From an uncultured Paenibacillus sp. (GTDB lineage Bacteria > Bacillota > Bacilli > Paenibacillales > Paenibacillaceae): a stretch of 64,000 nucleotides of DNA. The notes beneath the pieces are model-generated. The model was not told where the DNA came from and ran no database searches. It was given only the letters and a program-made list of their open reading frames with translations. Made by a program: the position numbers and the translations under genes. The stretch covers positions 24,982 to 88,981 of the forward strand of contig CALAWP010000011.1 in NCBI GenBank assembly GCA_937895345.1, read 5' to 3'. How positions within the stretch are numbered: position 1 is the first letter of the stretch; each line of letters starts with the position of its first letter. Positions 1,558 through 9,069 of this stretch are shown one piece after another.

Positions 1558-2829
1558 ATGAAATATGACGTCATCGTTGCAGGTGCGGGATCGGCCGGAC
1601 TGATGGCCGCTGCGGCAGCCGGCGAGCACGGCGCCAAGGTGCTTCTGCTCGACAAGGGCGACAAATTGGGCCGCAAGCTCGGCATATCGGGCGGCGGAAG
1701 ATGCAATGTGACCAACGCCAAAGAACTGGACGAGCTGATCCAGAACATTCCGGGAAACGGAAAATATTTATACAGCGCATTTGCGACGTTCAGCAATAAA
1801 CATATCGTCGCTTTCTTCGAAGAGCTTGGCATCCAGCTGCAGGAGGAAGACAACGGACGAATGTTTCCCGTCAGCGGCAAAGCCAAGACGGTCGTGGACG
1901 CGCTCGTCGGCAAAGTTCGTTCGCTCGGCGCGGAAATCCGCGTCAATAGTCCGATCGAACGGGTCATTTACCGGGACGGAAGAGCGGCGGGTGTCCGGCT
2001 GCGGACAGGCGAAACGATTGCGAGCAATGCGGTCATTGTGGCCGTCGGCGGCAAATCCGTTCCTCAAACCGGCTCTACCGGCGACGGTTACGCATGGGCC
2101 GAGGAAGCCGGCCATACGATCGTCGAGCTGTTTCCGACGGAAGTGCCGCTGACGTCGAAGGAACCTTTTATCGTGCGGAAGGAATTGCAGGGATTGTCGC
2201 TGCGCGGTGTGGAAATGTCCGTCTGGAACGCCAAAGGGAAACGAATCGTCCGGCATGAGGGCGATATGATCTTTACCCATTTCGGCATGTCGGGACCGAT
2301 TGCCCTTCGCTGCAGCCAGTTTGTCGTCAAGGAAAGAAAAAAGAACGGAGGCGGCGAGGTAGCCGTCCGGATCGATTTGAAGCCGGGAACGTCGGCGGAC
2401 GAGCTGTATGCCCATACGATGGAACTGTGCAAGCAAGAGTCCCGCAAAACGATCAAAAACGTCTTAAAGGGGTTCTTTCCGGAGCGAATGGTGCCTTTGC
2501 TGCTGGAGCGGACGGGGCTGAAGGAGGATATTACCTACGATCATATCCCGAAGCAACAGTGGATGGAGCTTATGCAAATCGCCAAAGCGTTTACGGTGAT
2601 GGTGAACGGCACGCTGTCGATCGAAGAAGCGTTCGTCACCGGCGGCGGAGTCAATCTAAAGGAAATCGATCCGAGGTCGATGCAGTCCAAGCTGATGGAC
2701 GGCCTCTATTTTTGCGGAGAAATTTTGGACATCCATGGGTATACGGGGGGATACAATATTACTGCCGCGTTCTCCACGGGCTATAACGCAGGCAAGCATG
2801 CCGCAGAAACGACGACCGGCGTCCGTTAA
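1558..2829 (+). CDS. ytfP: HI0933/YtfP/BaiN-family flavoprotein (NAD(P)/FAD oxidoreductase)
   Basis: GAGSAG FAD motif, [43 protein letters not shown]. Confidence 0.88.
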
Positions 2830-3410
2830 GCGTCCTGGACCGTTCGATGAGCCTCCGTCACAGCGACTCGAGCTCACTTTAAGAGCCTGCGTTAAGCGTC
2901 CCGGGCCGCTCTATGATGCTACATCAAAGCAGCCCGGACTGCTACAAGATCCCATTATGCGGCCCGAGCCTGCTCTATGATGCTAATTCAGAGCGGCCCG
3001 GGCTGTCTCACGAATCCCGTTATGCAGCCCGAGCTTGCTCTCTGTTGCTACGTCAGTGCGGCACGAACTGCCTCACGATCCCCGTTATGCGGCCCGAGCC
3101 TGCTCTATGATGCTACGTCGTGCGGCCTGAGCTGCCTCACGATCCCCGTTATGCGGCCCGAGCCCGTGGCTAGATGCTACGTCAGTGCGGCACGAACTGC
3201 CTCACGATCCCCGTTATGCGGCCCGAGCCCGTGGCTAGATGCTACGTCAGTGCGGCACGAGCTGCTTCACGATCACCGTTATGCGGCCCGAGCCTGTGGC
3301 TAGATGCTACGTCAGTGCGGCACGAGCTGCTTCACGATCACCGTTATGTGGCCCGAGCCTGCTCTATGATGCTACGTCGTGCGGCCTAAGCTGCCTCACG
3401 ATCCCCGTTG
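2824..3410. repeat. Tandem array of about 9 units of 63-66 bp (mostly 64-65), non-coding
   Basis: Unit starts at 2824, 2890, 2953, 3018, 3083, 3147, 3212, 3277, 3342 (partial at 3406). Consensus CGTTATGCGGCCCGAGCC(TGCTCTAT/CGTGGCTA)GATGCTACGTCAGTGCGGCACGARCTGCCTCACGATCCC. Confidence 0.92.
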
Positions 3411-3470
3411 CAGCCGAACCGCTCACGATCCGAATGCTCGGGCCGGGCTAAGGCCGTGTTCGAGACGAGA

Positions 3471-3875
3471 CTAGATACGAACATCGCCCGAAAAGTAACT
3501 GTAAGATTTGGCGTCAGGATCGAACAAATCCGGGTCGTAGCCGTCCTCGTCCCGGTTGGCCAGTCCGAGTTCCGTCTCCTCCTGGGCGGCGATCCAATCT
3601 TCATTGACAACATGCGCCGGAATATGGATGGAATCCAACTCGTAGGCCGTATTGGTCAATCTCTCTTCCTGAAGCTCGGACTGCTCCATCAGCTTCCCGC
3701 CGTTCGCCTGCGCAATTTCAAGCGCAGAAGCCAGATCGTTTCCGTCTACATGAATATGCACCCGGTTCTCGCCGTGGCCAACGGGATCGTAGCCAAGCTC
3801 CTGCAGCAAATCGTAAGCGATTGCCGCGCTTCTATCGTCCTGAAACTGGAACATGATCGCTGCATGCTGGGACAT
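3471..3875 (-). CDS. Hypothetical acidic protein (134 aa)
   Basis: AAGGAAGA purine tract upstream; natural-looking composition with a strongly acidic C-terminus; no recognised motif. Confidence 0.7.
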   Translation of the reverse strand: MSQHAAIMFQFQDDRSAAIAYDLLQELGYDPVGHGENRVHIHVDGNDLASALEIAQANGGKLMEQSELQEERLTNTAYELDSIHIPAHVVNEDWIAAQEETELGLANRDEDGYDPDLFDPDAKSYSYFSGDVRI

Positions 3876-4056
3876 CTGCGTTCTTCCTTTCTTGGTGCGC
3901 GATGTTCGGCAAGCGCCCGGGCGGACGATCCTTCCCCTCCACGCCCGTTCGCTTGCCGCCTACCGTATAGGATGGCAACTTTGGAGCAAAGTTACTCCAT
4001 TAAGCTTCCATCCTCCGGCCGCCCGCTTTTCCTGGACGCTCGAAGTTCGTTTGGCG

Positions 4057-5052
4057 CGCTCTAAGGTCACGCATGAACTTGCATCGTCCTCCACTGCCGA
4101 TTCTGCTCGCTCTAAGGTCGCGCATGAACTTGCATCGTCCTCCACTGCCGATTCTGCTCGCTCTAAGGTCGTGCACGAACTTACATCGCCCTCCACCAGC
4201 CGTTTGGCACGCTCCAAGGTCGCGCATGAACTTACATCGTCCTCCGCTGCCGATACTGCTCGCTCTAAGGTCGCGCATGAACTTGCATCGTCCTCCACTG
4301 CCGATTCTGCTCGCTCTAAGGTCGCGCATGAACTTGCATCGTCCTCCACTGCCGATTCTGCTCGCTCTAAGGTCGTGCACGAACTTACTTCGCCCTCCGC
4401 CAGCCGTTTGGCCGCTCCAAGGTCGCGCATGAACTTACATCGTCCTCCGCCAGCCGTTTGGCACGCTCCAAGGTCGCGCATGAACTTACATCGTCCTCCG
4501 CTGCCGATTCTGCTCGCTCTAAGGTCGTGCATGAACTTACATCGTCCTCCGCCAGCCGTTTGGCACGCTCTAAGGTCGCGTATAAACTTACTTCGCCCTC
4601 TGCTGCCGATTCTGCTCGCTCTAAGGTCGTGCATGAACTTACTTCGCCCTCTGCTACCGATTCTGCTCGCTCTAAGGTCGTGCATGAACTTACATCGTCC
4701 TCCGCCAGCCGTTTGACACGCTCTAAGGTCGCGCATGAACTTGCATCGTCCTCCACTGCCGACTCTGCTCGCTCTAAGGTCGCGCATGAACTTATATCGC
4801 CCTCCGCCAGCCGTTTGACACGCTCTAAGGTCGTGCATGAACTTACATCGTCCTCCGCTGCCGATTCTGCTCGCTCCAAGGTCGTGCATGAACTTGCATC
4901 GTCCTCCACTGCCGACTCTGCTCGCTCCAAGGTCGCGCACGAACTTACATCGCCCTCTGCTACCGATTCTGCTCGCTCCAAGGTCGTGCATGAACTTATA
5001 TCGACCTCCGCCGCCGATTCTGCTCCCTCTAAGTCGCGCATGAACTTGCAAC
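4057..5052. repeat. 51-bp tandem array, 20 copies (last partial)
   Basis: Unit starts at 4057, 4108, 4159, 4210, 4261, 4312, 4363, 4413, 4464 ... 4974, 5025. Consensus CGCTCYAAGGTCGYGCAYGAACTTRCATCGYCCTCYRCT-GCCGATTCTGCT, with alternative 3' end C-AGCCGTTTGRCA. The unit at 4363 is 50 bp. Confidence 0.97.
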
Positions 5053-5082
5053 GCTCTGCGCTGCCTTTCCGCTCGTTCAACC

Positions 5083-5757
5083 TTACAACCTTGTGCCATA
5101 TAGCAGATCTTGCACCGCATCCCTGGAAATTTCGTAAAAATGCCGGCGCTGCCCAGACGTTTGGTCAGGCAATACCAGCCCTCTCTCTTCCAACTTTTGG
5201 AGCACTCTCATACTGTTTACTCTGCCTGCCTTCAAAAAACTTTTCACTTCCTTCAGCCGAAAAGGGCGGTTTAACCGCAACGCGTGCAACAGCAATTCTC
5301 TTTCATGCAAGGAGAACTCCTCCCCCTCACTCCTCTGTCCAAACTTCCCCAGCAACTCGTAAACCGAAGCCTGGCAAGCTTCTTTTTTCTTATCGAGCTC
5401 GTCCCAACTGAAAGGAATGTAAACATACCGGCGACTGGCGATCGTCCGCACCCTGCTCCTTTCAAAGCTGAAGCGGTCCCGCGTGATGTTTTCCGCATGG
5501 TATGCATAACCCTCGCTCTCGAATGCGAGCCCTAACGGTTCATAAAATGCATCGATAAAAATCGAAAATCCGCCCGTATTGACGATTTCATACTCCAAAA
5601 TGAATCCATGAAAGCTTTTAAATACGGGCCACAGCACCTCGCTGAACATTTTACGTTCGCCGGTCAAATCCTTTTGCAGCATTTCCAGCCTCCGGCCCCT
5701 GGCCGTTTTCTTTTGTTCCAGCAAAAAAGCATTAAACTCCACATCGAAGTTCGGCAT
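5083..5757 (-). CDS. Putative Vsr/DUF559-like PD-(D/E)XK endonuclease domain fused to a C-terminal winged helix
   Basis: GGAGGG RBS then ATG at 5757. The pattern LEYEI..IFIDAF..LAFESEG..YH..ERSR..YIPFSWDEL parallels the Vsr/DUF559 E..D..ExxG..H core. C-terminal FRLKEVKSFL..RVLQKLEERGLV is wHTH-like. GC is about 42-47% in sampled lines, below the flanking genes. Confidence 0.6.
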   Translation of the reverse strand: MPNFDVEFNAFLLEQKKTARGRRLEMLQKDLTGERKMFSEVLWPVFKSFHGFILEYEIVNTGGFSIFIDAFYEPLGLAFESEGYAYHAENITRDRFSFERSRVRTIASRRYVYIPFSWDELDKKKEACQASVYELLGKFGQRSEGEEFSLHERELLLHALRLNRPFRLKEVKSFLKAGRVNSMRVLQKLEERGLVLPDQTSGQRRHFYEISRDAVQDLLYGTRL

Positions 5758-5799
5758 ATCCAGCATCCCTCCAAACTAATGAAATGTGCGAGCTCCGCG

Positions 5800-5845
5800 A
5801 AACAAAAAAGCGCCGACCATCCCTCCACAGAGAGACAATCGGCGC
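5800..5845 (-). terminator. Intrinsic terminator between xylB and the nuclease gene
   Basis: Minus strand GCGCCGA-N22-TCGGCGC followed by TTTTTTGTTT. Confidence 0.7.
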
Positions 5846-5929
5846 ATGCTTTGCGCGTAACTGGCGACTGATAAAAGTATAACTCAACTTGCGTCACAAC
5901 GGAACTGCATATTCTGTGATCCGCGCGGG

Positions 5930-6075
5930 CCTGGAACGGTTCCCTTGACGATATCCGGCCTACCCCCGGAACAGTTCGTTCGCTTCGACGGTTTCCGCCC
6001 CTGGAACGGTTCAATCGCTTCGATCGGCCTGACGATATCCGGTCTATCCCCTGAACGGAGCGATCGCTTCGTTCA
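5930..6075. repeat. Degenerate direct repeats overlapping the xylB 3' end
   Basis: TGACGATATCCGG(C/T)CTA(C/T)CCC at 5946 and 6030. CCYGGAACRGTTC..TCGCTTCG-like motifs at about 5930, 5965, 6000 and 6050. Confidence 0.7.
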
Positions 6076-7540
6076 AACCGCGAGTGGCGGCGTACACTTG
6101 CTGGTAGACGCGGAAGATCGCTTCGTATTGCTTGACGGCTTCCGGATTCGGCTTGTAGCTGTCCGCATGCTTGACGAAGCGCTCGGCGCAGGCTTCGAGG
6201 CTGTCATACCAGCCGCAGCCGTAAGCGGCGAGCATCGCGGCGCCGAGACCCGGTCCTTGCTCGTTCTCCAGCGACACGACTTCGGCGTTGAAAATATCGG
6301 CTTGCATTTGCAGCCAGTCCGGATTTTGCGCGCCGCCTCCGATGGAGACGATCTTGTCGACGGTTTTGCCAGCGCTGCGGAACATATCGACGGACTCGTT
6401 CAAGGAGAACGTGATGCCTTCCATCACCGCCCGGGCAAAATGAACCCGTTTATGCGAGCCGTCGATGCCGATAAAGCTCGCCCGAATCGTAGAATCGGCA
6501 TGAGGCGTACGTTCTCCGACCAGATAAGGCGTAAACAGCAGCCCGTTCGAGCCCGGCGACACTTCACCTACGCCTGCCAACAGCTCGCCGAACGACTCGC
6601 CCGCCGCAAACGTATTTTTGAACCAGCTCAGGCTGTAGCCGGCGGCGAGCGTGACGCCCATCGCATAAAACGCATTTTCCTTGCCATGGTTGAAGAAATG
6701 CACTTTGCCCCGGTAATCCTTCTCGCGGTCCTCTTCATACGACAAAATAACGCCTGAGGTGCCGATGCTGCAAAGCGTCAGCCCTTCCGACAAAATTCCC
6801 GCGCCGATGGCGCCGCAAGCGTTGTCGGCGCCGCCCGCAAACACTTTAACGGAAGCCGCAAGTCCCGTTTTCGCCGCCAGCTCGGGCAGCAGCGTGCCTG
6901 TCAGCCCATGCGACTCGACAAGCGGAGGGCAGAAGCTGTCTGGCAAATCGAACGCGCGCAGCACGTCGCCGCTCCACGTTTTGCCGGCGACATCCAGCAG
7001 CAGCGTGCCGGCCGCATCGGAATAATCCATATGAAGCTGTCCGGTCAGCCGGTAACGCACATAATCCTTCGGCAGCAGGAACAGCTTCGCTTTCGCGAAC
7101 AGCTCCGGCTCATGTTGGCGCACCCACAATATTTTGGGCAGCGTGAAGCCTTCGAGCGCCGGATTGCGCGTGACCGACAGCAGCTTGTCGCCAAGCGTCC
7201 GTTCGATCTCGCGGCATTGTTCCGTCGTGCGCGTATCGTTCCATAGGATCGCGTTGCGCACAGGATTGCCCGCATCGTCCAGCAGCACGAGGCCGTGCAT
7301 TTGGCCGGAAAAACTGATGCCTTCAATTCGAGAAGCGTCGATTCCTTCGGCCGCCGCCGCTTCGGCCAGAGCCTCCAGCGTCGCGTCTACCCAATCGTCC
7401 GGCCTCTGTTCGCTCCAGCCGGAATGCTCGTGAAACAACGGATAGCTGCGGGACGCCTCCGCCGCCACTTTGCCGTCCTTGGCCACAAGCAGCACTTTGA
7501 CCGCGCTTGTTCCCAAGTCAATACCTGCAACATAACTCAT
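6044..7540 (-). CDS. xylB: Xylulokinase
   Basis: FGGY kinase motifs GIDLGTSAVK, SGQMHG, ILWNDTRT, GGADNA, PYLVGERTP; downstream of xylA. Confidence 0.95.
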   Translation of the reverse strand: MSYVAGIDLGTSAVKVLLVAKDGKVAAEASRSYPLFHEHSGWSEQRPDDWVDATLEALAEAAAAEGIDASRIEGISFSGQMHGLVLLDDAGNPVRNAILWNDTRTTEQCREIERTLGDKLLSVTRNPALEGFTLPKILWVRQHEPELFAKAKLFLLPKDYVRYRLTGQLHMDYSDAAGTLLLDVAGKTWSGDVLRAFDLPDSFCPPLVESHGLTGTLLPELAAKTGLAASVKVFAGGADNACGAIGAGILSEGLTLCSIGTSGVILSYEEDREKDYRGKVHFFNHGKENAFYAMGVTLAAGYSLSWFKNTFAAGESFGELLAGVGEVSPGSNGLLFTPYLVGERTPHADSTIRASFIGIDGSHKRVHFARAVMEGITFSLNESVDMFRSAGKTVDKIVSIGGGAQNPDWLQMQADIFNAEVVSLENEQGPGLGAAMLAAYGCGWYDSLEACAERFVKHADSYKPNPEAVKQYEAIFRVYQQVYAATRGLNEAIAPFRG

Positions 7541-7574
7541 CGCTTTGGCCTGCCCCTCTCCTGTTTAGATGCCA

Positions 7575-7726
7575 AGCATGCCGCGATCGCTGCATGTCCG
7601 TGGCATGCTGATCGCGGCATGTTTCTTGCACGCGGAGTTCAGTCCCCGCATAGGTTGCGTGTGTTGCCTTCTTGCACGCGGGAGTTCAGTCCCCGCATAG
7701 GCTGCGCGTGTTGCCTTCTTGCACGC
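7575..7726. repeat. Inverted repeat plus 2.2 copies of a 46-47 bp palindromic direct repeat in the xylA-xylB spacer
   Basis: AAGCATGCCGCGATC...GATCGCGGCATGTTT at about 7575-7624. TTCTTGCACGCG(G)GAGTTCAGTCCCCGCATAGG(T/C)TGCG(T/C)GTGTTGCC starts at 7623, 7669 and 7716 (partial). Confidence 0.85.
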
Positions 7727-7755
7727 CGAGATTGGCATGCGGATCGTCGTACTCG

Positions 7756-9069
7756 TTATACGCTGAAAATAACTTCGCTCAGCTTCAGGCGGATATTTTC
7801 TTGGCGGCCGGATTTGTTGACAATCGGCGGATTCGTCAAAATGTATTGCTCCAGCGATTTCAGCGTCGCTTTGCCGGCCACGATATCGGCGCCGATGCCT
7901 TCTTTGAACGTGGCGTAACGATCTTCCACGATGCTGTCGAGAATTTTTTCTTCGATCAGCTTGGCTGCGGCTTTCAAGCCCCATGCAAAGCTGTCCATGC
8001 CCGCGATGTGCGCCAGCACGAGATCGTCCATCTCGAACGAACCGCGGCGTACTTTGGCGTCGAAGTTGACGCCGCCGCGGCCCAGGCCGCCCGCTTTGAC
8101 AACCTCGTACATCGTCAATGTCGTAGAGTACAGATCCGTTGGGAATTCGTCCGTATCCCAGCCGAGCAGCAAATCGCCCTGGTTCGCGTCGAGCGAGCCC
8201 AGCATGCCGTTGATGGCGGCCGTGCGGATTTCGTGCTCGAACGTATGGCCGGCCAGCGTCGCATGGTTCGCTTCCAGGTTCAGCTTGAAATGATCCTTCA
8301 AGCCGTATTTTTGCAGGAACGAAATCGTCGTCGCCGCATCGAAGTCGTATTGATGCTTCGTCGGCTCTTTTGGCTTAGGCTCGATCAGGAATTGCGCGTC
8401 GAAGCCGATTTCCTTCGCATATTCGATCGCCATATGGTAAAGGCGGGCCAGGTTGTCGAGCTCCAGCGCCATATCGGTGTTGAGCAGCGTTTCGTAGCCT
8501 TCGCGGCCGCCCCAGAATACGTAGTTTTCGGCGCCCAGCTCCTTGCCGACCTCAAGACCTTTTTTCAGTTGAGCCGCGGCGTAAGCGTATACGTTGGCGT
8601 TGACGGCCGTGCCGGCGCCGTGCACGTAACGCGGATTCGAAAACATGTTGACCGTGTTCCAGAGCAGCTTTTTGCCCGTTTGCTTCATGTAGTCTTTCAG
8701 CATCGCAACGATAACGTCCAGGTTTTTGTTCGTTTCCTGCAGCGTTTCGCCTTCAGGAGCAATGTCGACGTCATGGAAGCAGTAGAACGGAATGTTCAGC
8801 TTCTCCATAAATTCAAAGTTCGCTTCTACGCGCGCCTTGGAGCGGTCCAGGCCGTCGTATTTGTCCCAGCTGCGAACCATCGTGCCTACGCCGAACGGAT
8901 CCGTGCCGTTCGCGTTGAACGTATGCCAGTAGGCGACGGCGAAACGAAGATGCTCCTCCATCGTCTTGCCCAATACGACCGCGCTTGGATCGTAATGCTT
9001 GAACGCAAACGGATTATTGGAGCCTTTGCCTTCGAATTGGATCTTGTCGATGCCTTGGAAATAACTCAT
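7756..9069 (-). CDS. xylA: Xylose isomerase (class II)
   Basis: [56 protein letters not shown]. Confidence 0.97.

Follow-up and report, generated by a model that had tools for sequence, protein, structure and literature searches.

The window analysed is a stretch of 64,000 nucleotides from an uncultured Paenibacillus sp. (assembly GCA_937895345.1, contig CALAWP010000011.1, positions 24,982 to 88,981, forward strand). It contains, next to xylB, a small gene for a predicted nuclease carrying a winged helix, directly adjoined by an array of tandem repeats and followed by a gene for a 134-aa protein. The features of the locus are collected in Table 1.

Table 1. Features at the nuclease gene and repeat locus (positions in the window)
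Feature	Position	Strand	Description
Gene for protein P0001	5083..5766	-	Intact 227-aa ORF, probably 224 aa from ATG 5757; Paenibacillales-restricted family of about 220-aa proteins, all annotated as hypothetical
N-terminal part (residues 1-144)	5335..5766	-	Three helices followed by a predicted Vsr/DUF559-like alpha/beta nuclease core
C-terminal domain (about residues 150-224)	5095..5319	-	Predicted winged helix-turn-helix
Linker	5052..5082	-	About 30 nt between the stop codon and the first full core; holds a degenerate half-core (TTGTAAGGTTGAAC) overlapping the stop codon; no terminator predicted
Tandem array	4034..5051	-	20 units of 51 bp; 26-bp pseudo-palindromic core (n)TG(T/C)AAGTTC-N6-GACCTT(A/G)GAG plus a 25-nt purine-rich spacer of module A or B
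xylB terminator	5810..5845	-	Strong intrinsic terminator (16-bp stem plus T-run), 44 nt upstream of the gene
Neighbouring repeat	2890-3409		65 bp x 8
Neighbouring repeat	about 5927-6060
Neighbouring repeat	7623-7730		47 bp x 2.3

The observation made in a preliminary description of this DNA, a putative nuclease gene immediately next to a 20-copy, 51-bp array, was confirmed. TRF reports the array at 4057-5047, with 19.5 copies and 84% matches. When it was split by its core on the minus (gene-sense) strand, 18 units proved to be 51 bp long and two 50 bp, with two spacer modules, A (13 units) and B (6 units). The ATG at 5757 is the likely start of the gene, because GGAGG lies 10 nt upstream and the 92%-identical homologue is 224 aa long. 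The GC content of the gene is 48.6%, compared to 55 to 60% for its neighbours; it is thus lower, as had been stated, but not 42 to 47% overall. The terminator scan indicates that the gene is a unit separate from xylB, or is reached by read-through. The three other repeats that had been pointed out nearby do exist, but they are unique to this locus and unrelated to the 51-bp family, so that the proposal that they reflect a local nick-and-slip activity was not upheld. An Rfam search of positions 2500-8000 found no family.

We then examined the protein. More than 200 homologues were found, and the family forms 402 clusters at 50% identity among 1.84 billion representatives. A PDB sequence-profile search gave only weak winged helix matches, and Foldseek with the whole model saw only the winged helix, with MarR-family regulators at probability 1.0. 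In Pfam, HTH_27 was reached at E = 0.005 for P0001, and TrmB and MarR_2 in other members, all below cut-off. The N-terminal domain was therefore modelled alone. This AF2 model (pLDDT 90.3) gave as best Foldseek hits 3r3p (I-Bth0305I) and 3hrl (NGO0050, DUF559-type), both at probability 0.99 with TMt 0.61-0.67, followed by AbaSI, RAP proteins, R2 RLE and 1vsr; the E-values, however, are marginal (about 0.02). Pfam DUF559 (PF04480) gave no hit for P0001, only 2 of 34 family members reaching E of about 0.01, and NCBIfam gave nothing. The D72...E83-x-E85-G86...H90 pattern noted earlier is real: D72, E83 and H90 are invariant in A1/A2, together with E/D85, R96, R98, E102, R105 and R107, and position 85 is E or D in nearly all of 33-34 sequences. 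These residues were assigned to catalytic positions from conservation and motif analogy rather than by superposition of structures, and endonuclease activity is only inferred.

If gene and array belong together, homologous genes should also adjoin arrays. A search for related loci with the single protein returned nothing, and an alignment was needed to retrieve them. Among 80 homologous loci, 57 had an array with a period of about 51/52 bp (or a multiple) starting within 450 bp downstream of the stop codon (median gap 19 bp), and 12 more had one 136-422 bp upstream. Only about 11 such arrays lie in the other roughly 900 kb of flanks, a background of about 1 array per 100 kb, so that homologues are more than 100-fold enriched for an adjacent array. 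Many contigs break inside the array just after the gene. About 10% of loci show no array, and distant subfamilies have arrays of other periods or none (as in genome G013). Each unit is a 25-27-bp palindrome with TGTAA...TTACA ends plus a purine-rich spacer of about 25 nt. The stop codon was not consistently embedded in the first hairpin across loci. No other flanking gene is shared by more than 8 of 62 loci, which leaves no sign of a third component. The gene has a GC content about 5 points below that of its flanks in 55 of 62 loci.

What the preliminary description had not seen is that the array is one of about 33 in the genome. We counted 359 cores in 33 arrays of 2 to 28 units, and only 2 of the 35 clusters of cores were singletons. 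Arrays of this main family cover about 18 kb of the 4.8-Mb genome, and many lie at contig ends in this draft. Two relatives show the same pattern with cores of their own. In one (G004), 10 of 10 sampled dispersed arrays carry AAGTCGA..TCGACTT, like the gene-adjacent array. In the other (G020), 10 of 10 carry AAGCCGAG..CTCGGCTT, while a second dispersed family, TAAGTCGGT..ACCGACTTA, matches the second paralogue. In the genome studied here, the paralogues on C75 and C5 likewise each have their own repeat family.

The reverse situation was also investigated. A covariance model of two hairpins 51 nt apart, with at most 116 candidates per genome, had hits in none of 8 gene-negative genomes, compared to 20 of 33 gene-positive ones. 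This model is insensitive, as it missed a genome that does have arrays (G017), and it was therefore used only as one-sided evidence, backed by TRF on sampled DNA. TRF found no array of period about 51n in 677 kb of the gene-negative relative G022, where 8.9 were expected at the density of the present genome, and none in 400 kb of a second gene-negative relative, G033. The P. soyae orthologue, in which the catalytic motif is degenerate, has no array. Arrays also appear at new sites: the one downstream of argH is absent at the orthologous site in the relatives that keep both flanking genes. The gene and array, however, are syntenic between xylB and the 134-aa gene in at least four other species. 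They are therefore vertically inherited and not recently inserted, and the earlier suggestion of one inserted module was not upheld.

The arrays are polar. The purine-rich strand lies on the leading strand in 49 of 49 loci, in 24 of 27 arrays of the present genome, and in 9 of 9 loci assigned by replichore in P. tarimensis. The array usually has the same orientation as the gene, but flips relative to it when the gene is head-on to replication, so that orientation follows the replichore and not the gene. This polarity could instead reflect selection on composition or on transcription. Units in many species form strong hairpins, in which G-U pairs are rare. This was not the case, however, in the present genome, where the core does not fold as a stable single-stranded DNA hairpin (z = +0.6 and +1.5); a hairpin-based, RAYT-like mechanism is therefore not supported here.

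Taken together, the interpretation given in the preliminary description is partly supported. Its central idea, a Vsr/DUF559-like nuclease-winged helix gene functionally tied to the adjoining array, withstood the conditions set beforehand for rejecting it: homologues are enriched for adjacent arrays, the predicted fold matches Vsr/DUF559-type nucleases with invariant acidic and His residues, and the gene-negative relatives sampled lack such arrays. A defence role was not upheld, since PADLOC and PHROGs gave nothing meaningful (only a weak Csa3-type winged helix hit at E = 0.017 in PADLOC) and the spacers are homogenised rather than unique. Its further proposals, that the winged helix binds the array or that the nuclease drives its expansion, remain inferences.

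We consider it more likely than not that the protein is the dedicated trans-acting partner of a genome-wide family of 51-52-bp tandem arrays. The analysis itself establishes the linkage of gene and array in most of about 80 loci, the palindromic core whose inner sequence is specific to genome and paralogue, the scattering of arrays with the core of the gene-adjacent one at tens of intergenic sites, their appearance at new sites within a lineage, the failure to find them in the two gene-free relatives sampled, the lack of an array at the orthologue with a degenerate motif, and their polarity. The rest is inferred, without biochemical evidence: the winged helix, probably as a dimer, would recognise the core, phased every 51-52 bp or about five helical turns; the nuclease domain would nick or cut at or near the conserved TGTAA/TTACA ends; repair and replication of these lesions would amplify, homogenise and occasionally re-seed arrays; and the gene-adjacent array would act as the resident master copy. 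In logic this would be a REP/RAYT (REPIN-RAYT)-like, vertically inherited 'replicator', a non-HUH analogue built from a non-homologous enzyme and from tandem arrays instead of REP doublets. It must be kept in mind that co-divergence of protein and core is also expected from simple linkage.

Other explanations appear less likely. The arrays could be phased binding platforms, on one DNA face every five turns, for a domesticated DNA-binding protein that organises or marks the chromosome, for example in replication-fork, segregation or insulation roles; the nuclease-like domain would then be inactive or used only for binding, and arrays would spread by ordinary slippage and recombination. Strict phasing, polarity of the kind seen for Ter, KOPS and SRS-type sites, long-term inheritance at fixed loci, and a pseudo-palindrome that does not fold as a hairpin, which fits duplex recognition by a dimer, are in favour of this view. 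We nevertheless regard it as unlikely, because the acidic and His residues are invariant across paralogues sharing 40-50% identity, the cores diverge fast between species and arrays turn over at new sites, which is unusual for essential architectural sites, many relatives lack both gene and arrays, so that the function is dispensable, and the low GC content looks more like a selfish or poorly adapted gene. The absence of any functional link, the 3' flank of the gene being simply a hotspot where these repeats arise or insert, or gene and array hitch-hiking as a neutral pair, would be compatible with arrays far outnumbering genes (33 to 1 for the main family here) and with co-divergence through linkage. 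It is disfavoured, and very unlikely, as linkage is kept across many independent genomic contexts and paralogue lineages without other shared neighbours, unlinked arrays carry the core of the gene-adjacent array in three genomes, paralogue by paralogue, and arrays are absent from the gene-free genomes as far as sampled and are lost together with the degenerate orthologue.

A system acting at the RNA level, in which the array would be co-transcribed with the gene and processed into RNAs of about 51 nt (hairpin plus purine-rich tail) that guide or regulate something, as in CRISPR or TIGR systems, the protein binding or processing them, is equally improbable. The absence of a predicted terminator between gene and array, their usually shared orientation and the strong hairpins in many species could suggest it. 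However, the near-identical spacers offer no guide diversity, orientation follows the replichore, several dispersed arrays lie beyond the terminator of the upstream gene, G-U pairs are rare in the stems, Rfam gave no match, and the protein folds resemble DNA nucleases and DNA-binding winged helix domains. Finally, a 17-aa repeat ORF coupled to the nuclease gene was considered, given that 51 bp makes 17 codons, that long open frames cross the array and that each unit contains GGAGG-N4-ATG-TAA. It was rejected: two 50-bp units break the frame, homologous arrays have periods of 50, 52 and 53 bp, conservation follows a palindrome and not a reading frame, and several frames are open only because the unit lacks stop codons.

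The mechanisms by which dispersed bacterial repeat families arise, stay uniform and spread are known only for REP/RAYT and for IS-derived MITEs, and most minisatellite-like families, such as MIRU, have no known enzyme. Here a specific putative protein partner is identified for a large repeat family. Literature searches on 51-bp repeats, RAYT or REPIN in Paenibacillus, on repeat arrays in Paenibacillaceae, and on DUF559 with tandem repeats found no description of it. The pairing of one paralogue with one core offers natural specificity swaps for the study of protein-DNA recognition, and the strict polarity relative to replication suggests that the replication fork is involved. If the nuclease is site-specific, the family would be a source of new DNA recognition modules, programmable by evolution, and would explain VNTR-type markers and mis-assemblies in Paenibacillus and Cohnella genomes. 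In its strongest form, which we put forward only tentatively and at somewhat less than even chances, this may be a previously unrecognised class of vertically inherited intragenomic 'replicator' in Paenibacillales, in which the protein specifically recognises, cuts and thereby amplifies, homogenises and re-seeds replication-polar arrays; it would then be a convergent, non-HUH counterpart of REPIN-RAYT and the first known trans-acting enzyme for a bacterial minisatellite family.

Among known systems, the closest in logic are REP/REPIN elements with their RAYT (TnpA-REP, IS200/IS605-like HUH Y1) genes (PMC3116915, PMC3337134, bioRxiv 10.1101/2021.07.10.451892). As there, one or a few vertically inherited genes for a nuclease (here a predicted one) lie directly beside their cognate palindromic repeats, tens to hundreds of unlinked intergenic copies carry the same genome-specific palindrome, each paralogue is paired with its own repeat family, the repeats are absent where the gene is absent, the palindrome has a conserved short motif at its base and a variable stem, and copies sit preferentially at gene 3' ends and between convergent genes. 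In contrast, the enzyme is predicted to be of Vsr/DUF559-type PD-(D/E)xK fold with a winged helix, no Pfam hit to an HUH tyrosine transposase being found; the repeats are long head-to-tail arrays of strict 51-52-bp period instead of singlets or inverted doublets, without a GTAG/CGTC tag; the array lies on one side of the gene only; the core is not a stable hairpin in this genome; and the taxon is Paenibacillales (Firmicutes).

With the Vsr / DUF559 / I-Bth0305I 'EDxHD' homing endonuclease branch of the PD-(D/E)xK superfamily (1vsr, 3hrl, 3r3p), the protein shares the predicted fold of residues about 50-125, the D...E-x-(E/D)-G-x3-H motif and a following Arg-rich helix (T-R-D-R-F-x-F-E-R). It differs by an extra N-terminal three-helix segment and the C-terminal winged helix, and its gene is not in an intron, intein or phage context; no member of that branch is reported to be tied to repeat arrays. 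CRISPR-Cas and TIGR-Tas arrays also place regularly spaced palindromic repeats next to a nuclease gene, but here the spacers are homogenised copies rather than unique acquired sequences, dozens of arrays per genome have no adjacent gene, no Cas or Tas (Nop) domains are present, and orientation follows replication. Lastly, the MIRU-type interspersed minisatellites of mycobacteria and the BIME clusters of enterobacteria are likewise tandem units of about 50 bp dispersed in intergenic regions with locus-specific copy number. No partner protein is known for MIRUs, however, and their units are read as small ORFs coupled to the flanking genes, whereas the present arrays have periods of 50-53 bp and a palindromic core; BIMEs, for their part, alternate the orientation of REPs.

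The observation set out in the preliminary description, a gene directly adjoining a tandem array of 51-bp units, was confirmed. TRF reported the array with 19.5 copies and 84% matches. Read on the minus strand, which is the sense strand of the adjoining gene, and split at its core, the array was resolved into 20 units, two of which are 50 bp long. Each unit contains a 26-bp pseudo-palindromic core, (n)TG(T/C)AAGTTC-N6-GACCTT(A/G)GAG, and a 25-nt purine-rich spacer belonging to one of two modules: A, CGAGCAGAATCGGCAGYGGAGGACG (13 units), or B, CGTGYCAAACGGCTGGYGGAGGRCG (6 units). The gene is intact at 227 aa, but an internal ATG is the likelier start, because GGAGG lies 10 nt upstream of it and the 92%-identical homologue has 224 aa. 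A strong terminator of xylB is predicted before the gene, whereas no terminator is predicted between the gene and the array. The GC content of the gene is 48.6%, compared to 55 to 60% for its neighbours, and the same deficit of about 5 points is a family trait, seen in 55 of 62 loci. The coordinates of these and other features are collected in the table.

Coordinates of the gene, the arrays and other repeats (window, the stretch under study; C followed by a number, contigs of the same genome)
Feature	Sequence	Position	Strand
51-bp array as delimited by TRF	window	4057-5047	
51-bp array as split by its core (20 units)	window	5051 down to about 4034	-
Nuclease-like/wHTH gene, 227-aa frame	window	5083-5766	-
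Likelier start codon (ATG)	window	5757	-
xylB terminator	window	5845-5810	-
134-aa protein gene	window	3471-3875	-
65-bp x 8 tandem array	window	2890-3409	
Direct repeat of about 70 bp x 2	window	5927-6060	
47-bp x 2.3 repeat	window	7623-7730	
Array of 17 units downstream of argH	C59	64993-65835	
Distant paralogue	C75	37693-38340	
Distant paralogue	C5	72544-73191	
Second dispersed tandem family	C17	125-492	
Second dispersed tandem family	C48	46188-46455	
Second dispersed tandem family	C47	18819-19033	
Second dispersed tandem family	C79	81909-82167	

Searches with the protein returned only a sub-threshold winged-helix hit in Pfam (HTH_27, E = 0.005), and NCBIfam, PADLOC and PHROGs gave nothing useful. 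The family is small and taxonomically restricted: more than 200 close homologues were found, all about 220 aa long and annotated 'hypothetical', in Paenibacillus, Cohnella and related MAGs, and 402 clusters at 50% identity were found among 1.84 billion representatives. One member (locus L056, CABHOJ010000043.1) lies on a 4.3-kb contig binned as 'uncultured Methylotenera sp.' (Pseudomonadota), but it groups tightly with Paenibacillus daejeonensis, and the contig is probably mis-binned.

An AF2 model of the whole protein (pLDDT 85.6) matched only MarR-type wHTH proteins. The N-terminal 144 residues were therefore modelled alone (pLDDT 90.3). The best matches of this second model were the catalytic domain of the homing endonuclease I-Bth0305I (3r3p) and the DUF559-type protein NGO0050 (3hrl), both at probability 0.99 and E about 0.02, followed by AbaSI, RAP-domain proteins, the R2 endonuclease and Vsr itself. 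Residues D72, E83 and H90, which were assigned as putative catalytic residues by motif, are invariant in A1/A2; position 85 is E or D, and an Arg-rich helix (R96, R98, E102, R105, R107) is also invariant. The reading of the protein as a Vsr/DUF559-like nuclease plus wHTH, proposed in the preliminary description, is therefore supported at the level of fold and motif, although the Pfam DUF559 family itself is not reached (2 of 34 members at E about 0.01).

The array is one of many. The genome in which it lies (4.79 Mb in 104 contigs, 56.5% GC) holds 359 cores of this type in 33 arrays of 2 to 28 units. Spacing is almost invariably 51 bp, only two cores are singletons, and several arrays lie at contig ends. 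The units are homologous over their whole length, but the spacers are array-specific; this is concerted evolution within arrays, and higher-order periods of 102, 153 and 204 bp are frequent. Arrays are intergenic, lying typically just past the 3' end or terminator of a gene, and often between convergent genes. A second dispersed tandem family in this genome has a 52-bp period and is built around the palindrome TGAACGAT-N-ATCGTTCA; no partner gene was identified for it in this assembly, which is only 92.5% complete.

The three other repeats close to the gene are a different matter. The 65-bp array, with 34- and 194-bp sub- and super-periods, lies between the HI0933-like gene and the 134-aa gene; it is unique to this locus in the genome and absent from the syntenic loci of other species, which have only about 177 bp there. 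The repeat of about 70 bp overlaps the 3' end of xylB, the 47-bp repeat lies between xylB and xylA, and both are locus-unique. Four unrelated tandem repeats within 5 kb is more than the genome average of about 1 per 22 kb.

We next asked whether the link between gene and array is conserved. A profile-based scan of one genome per species returned 80 loci. In 57 of them an array of period 51/52, or a multiple, starts within 450 bp of the stop codon, with a median gap of 19 bp, and in 12 more the array lies 136 to 422 bp upstream, most of these belonging to one protein clade. Several of the remaining loci end a few dozen bases after the gene, as expected if the assembly broke in an array; the 2204-bp contig of the closest relative also ends 52 bp after the stop, inside the first core. 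Elsewhere in these loci, about 900 kb in all, only about 11 such arrays were found, so that the enrichment is well over 100-fold. No other flanking gene is shared by more than 8 of 62 loci. Distant subfamily members in one further genome (G010) have arrays of 39 to 51 bp beside 3 of 5 genes, whereas five control chunks had one coding-type repeat. Several homologues (loci L013, L043, L039 and L058) carry in-frame stops or frame breaks and are apparent pseudogenes, yet still have an array beside them, which may help to date how long arrays persist after inactivation of the gene.

Across species, each unit is a 25 to 27-bp palindrome with relatively conserved outer ends (consensus nTGTAA...TTACAG), a variable inner stem of 6 to 8 bp and an A-rich loop of 3 to 7 nt, followed by a purine-rich spacer of about 25 nt that often contains GGAG. 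All ten stem pairs show double (compensatory) changes among 33 arrays, but this set was chosen for palindromy and the percentage of paired positions is therefore biased. As ssDNA, units from two of the loci, L027 and L070, fold strongly (z = -7 to -8), while the core of the present genome, with 8 of 10 complementary positions, does not fold (z = +0.6 and +1.5). A stable hairpin is therefore not obligatory, and recognition of a duplex pseudo-palindrome is at least as plausible.

The core of the gene-adjacent array was then compared with those of dispersed arrays. In the present genome the core is AAGTTC...GACCTT, and all 33 arrays share it. In Paenibacillus sp. HB172176 (G004) it is AAGTCGA...TCGACTT, carried by 10 of 10 dispersed arrays sampled. 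In sp. 1011MAR3C5 (G020), which has two paralogues, the array beside paralogue 1 has the core AAGCCGAG...CTCGGCTT, carried by 10 of 10 dispersed arrays sampled, and that beside paralogue 2 has TAAGTCGGT...ACCGACTTA, which corresponds to a second dispersed family. The two distant paralogues of the present genome, on C75 and C5 (24 to 27% identity), each adjoin their own, smaller and more complex dispersed repeat family: the C75 family has units of about 50 bp in both orientations, and the C5 family is a TAACGAA-type family with about 8 loci, the contig ending 136 bp after the gene. On the protein tree, close relatives share cores and more distant ones differ.

Among 41 genomes of the order, 33 carry 1 to 11 copies of the gene. 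A covariance model of two hairpins 51 nt apart hit 20 of the 33 gene-positive genomes and 0 of the 8 gene-negative ones, but the model is insensitive, since it missed one genome (G017) whose loci do have arrays, and it serves as one-sided evidence only. TRF was therefore also run on sampled DNA of two gene-negative genomes. No array of period about 51n was found in 677 kb of G022, of the same genus, where 8.9 would be expected from the 63 found in the 4.79 Mb of the present genome, and none in 400 kb of G033.

The gene at this locus is syntenic. The order ROK-xylA-xylB-gene-array-134-aa gene-HI0933-like-hydrolase recurs in three other species and partly in two more, with protein identities of only 39 to 52% for the gene, compared to 84 to 87% for XylA, and each species has its own core. 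The 134-aa protein, which lies directly after the array, is a conserved, acidic protein of unknown function with only weak family hits, syntenic with the gene in five species (53 to 61% identity). The P. soyae orthologue of the gene has lost the catalytic motif (FESEDYFAYVE) and has no array, only 85 bp to the next gene. Conversely, the 17-unit array downstream of argH in the present genome, which has no gene beside it, is absent from the orthologous intergenic site wherever relatives keep both flanking genes; arrays are therefore gained at new sites. In two relatives a family paralogue (loci L207, G011:C45, and L210, G001:C39) occupies this same intergenic site, so that either the site is used recurrently, or a gene was lost here and left its array behind. 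The gene-adjacent array is old in position, yet it matches the dispersed arrays of its own genome and not the orthologous arrays of other species. From this we infer that the family is homogenised or continually re-seeded within each genome.

Arrays are also polar. In the present genome the orientation of the core agrees with the strand of positive GC skew in 24 of 27 arrays with adequate flanks, and in three more with short flanks. In the 80 loci, the purine-rich strand of the array is on the GC-skew-positive strand in 49 of 49 scorable cases, and where the gene itself is head-on (loci L018, L049, and also L006 and L014) the array is flipped relative to the gene. In the complete chromosome of P. 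tarimensis, with dnaA at 19-1329, all five array loci in the first half are on the plus strand and all four in the second half are on the minus strand. Orientation therefore follows replication, or something tightly tied to it, rather than the partner gene. The purine-rich strand is the parental lagging-strand template.

We found no description in the literature of this family, or of any DUF559/Vsr-like protein tied to repeat arrays, and Rfam has no model for it. The conserved linkage, the shared cores of dispersed arrays, the gain of arrays at a new site and the polarity are results of the analysis, whereas binding of the core by the wHTH, and amplification, homogenisation and re-seeding driven by the nuclease, are inferences, which we regard as roughly as likely as not. 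The interpretation given in the preliminary description is partly supported. The main rival, which we consider unlikely, is a domesticated DNA-binding protein that reads phased, polar binding platforms. A reading in which the array provides RNA guides, a coincidental link between gene and array, and a coding repeat are each disfavoured by specific results.

Overall, the data fit a REP/RAYT-like partnership built from different parts: a vertically inherited gene for a predicted nuclease-wHTH protein sits next to what would be a master array, cognate arrays are dispersed in trans, and, as far as the two gene-negative genomes sampled and the one-sided covariance-model screen indicate, the array family stands or falls with the gene.
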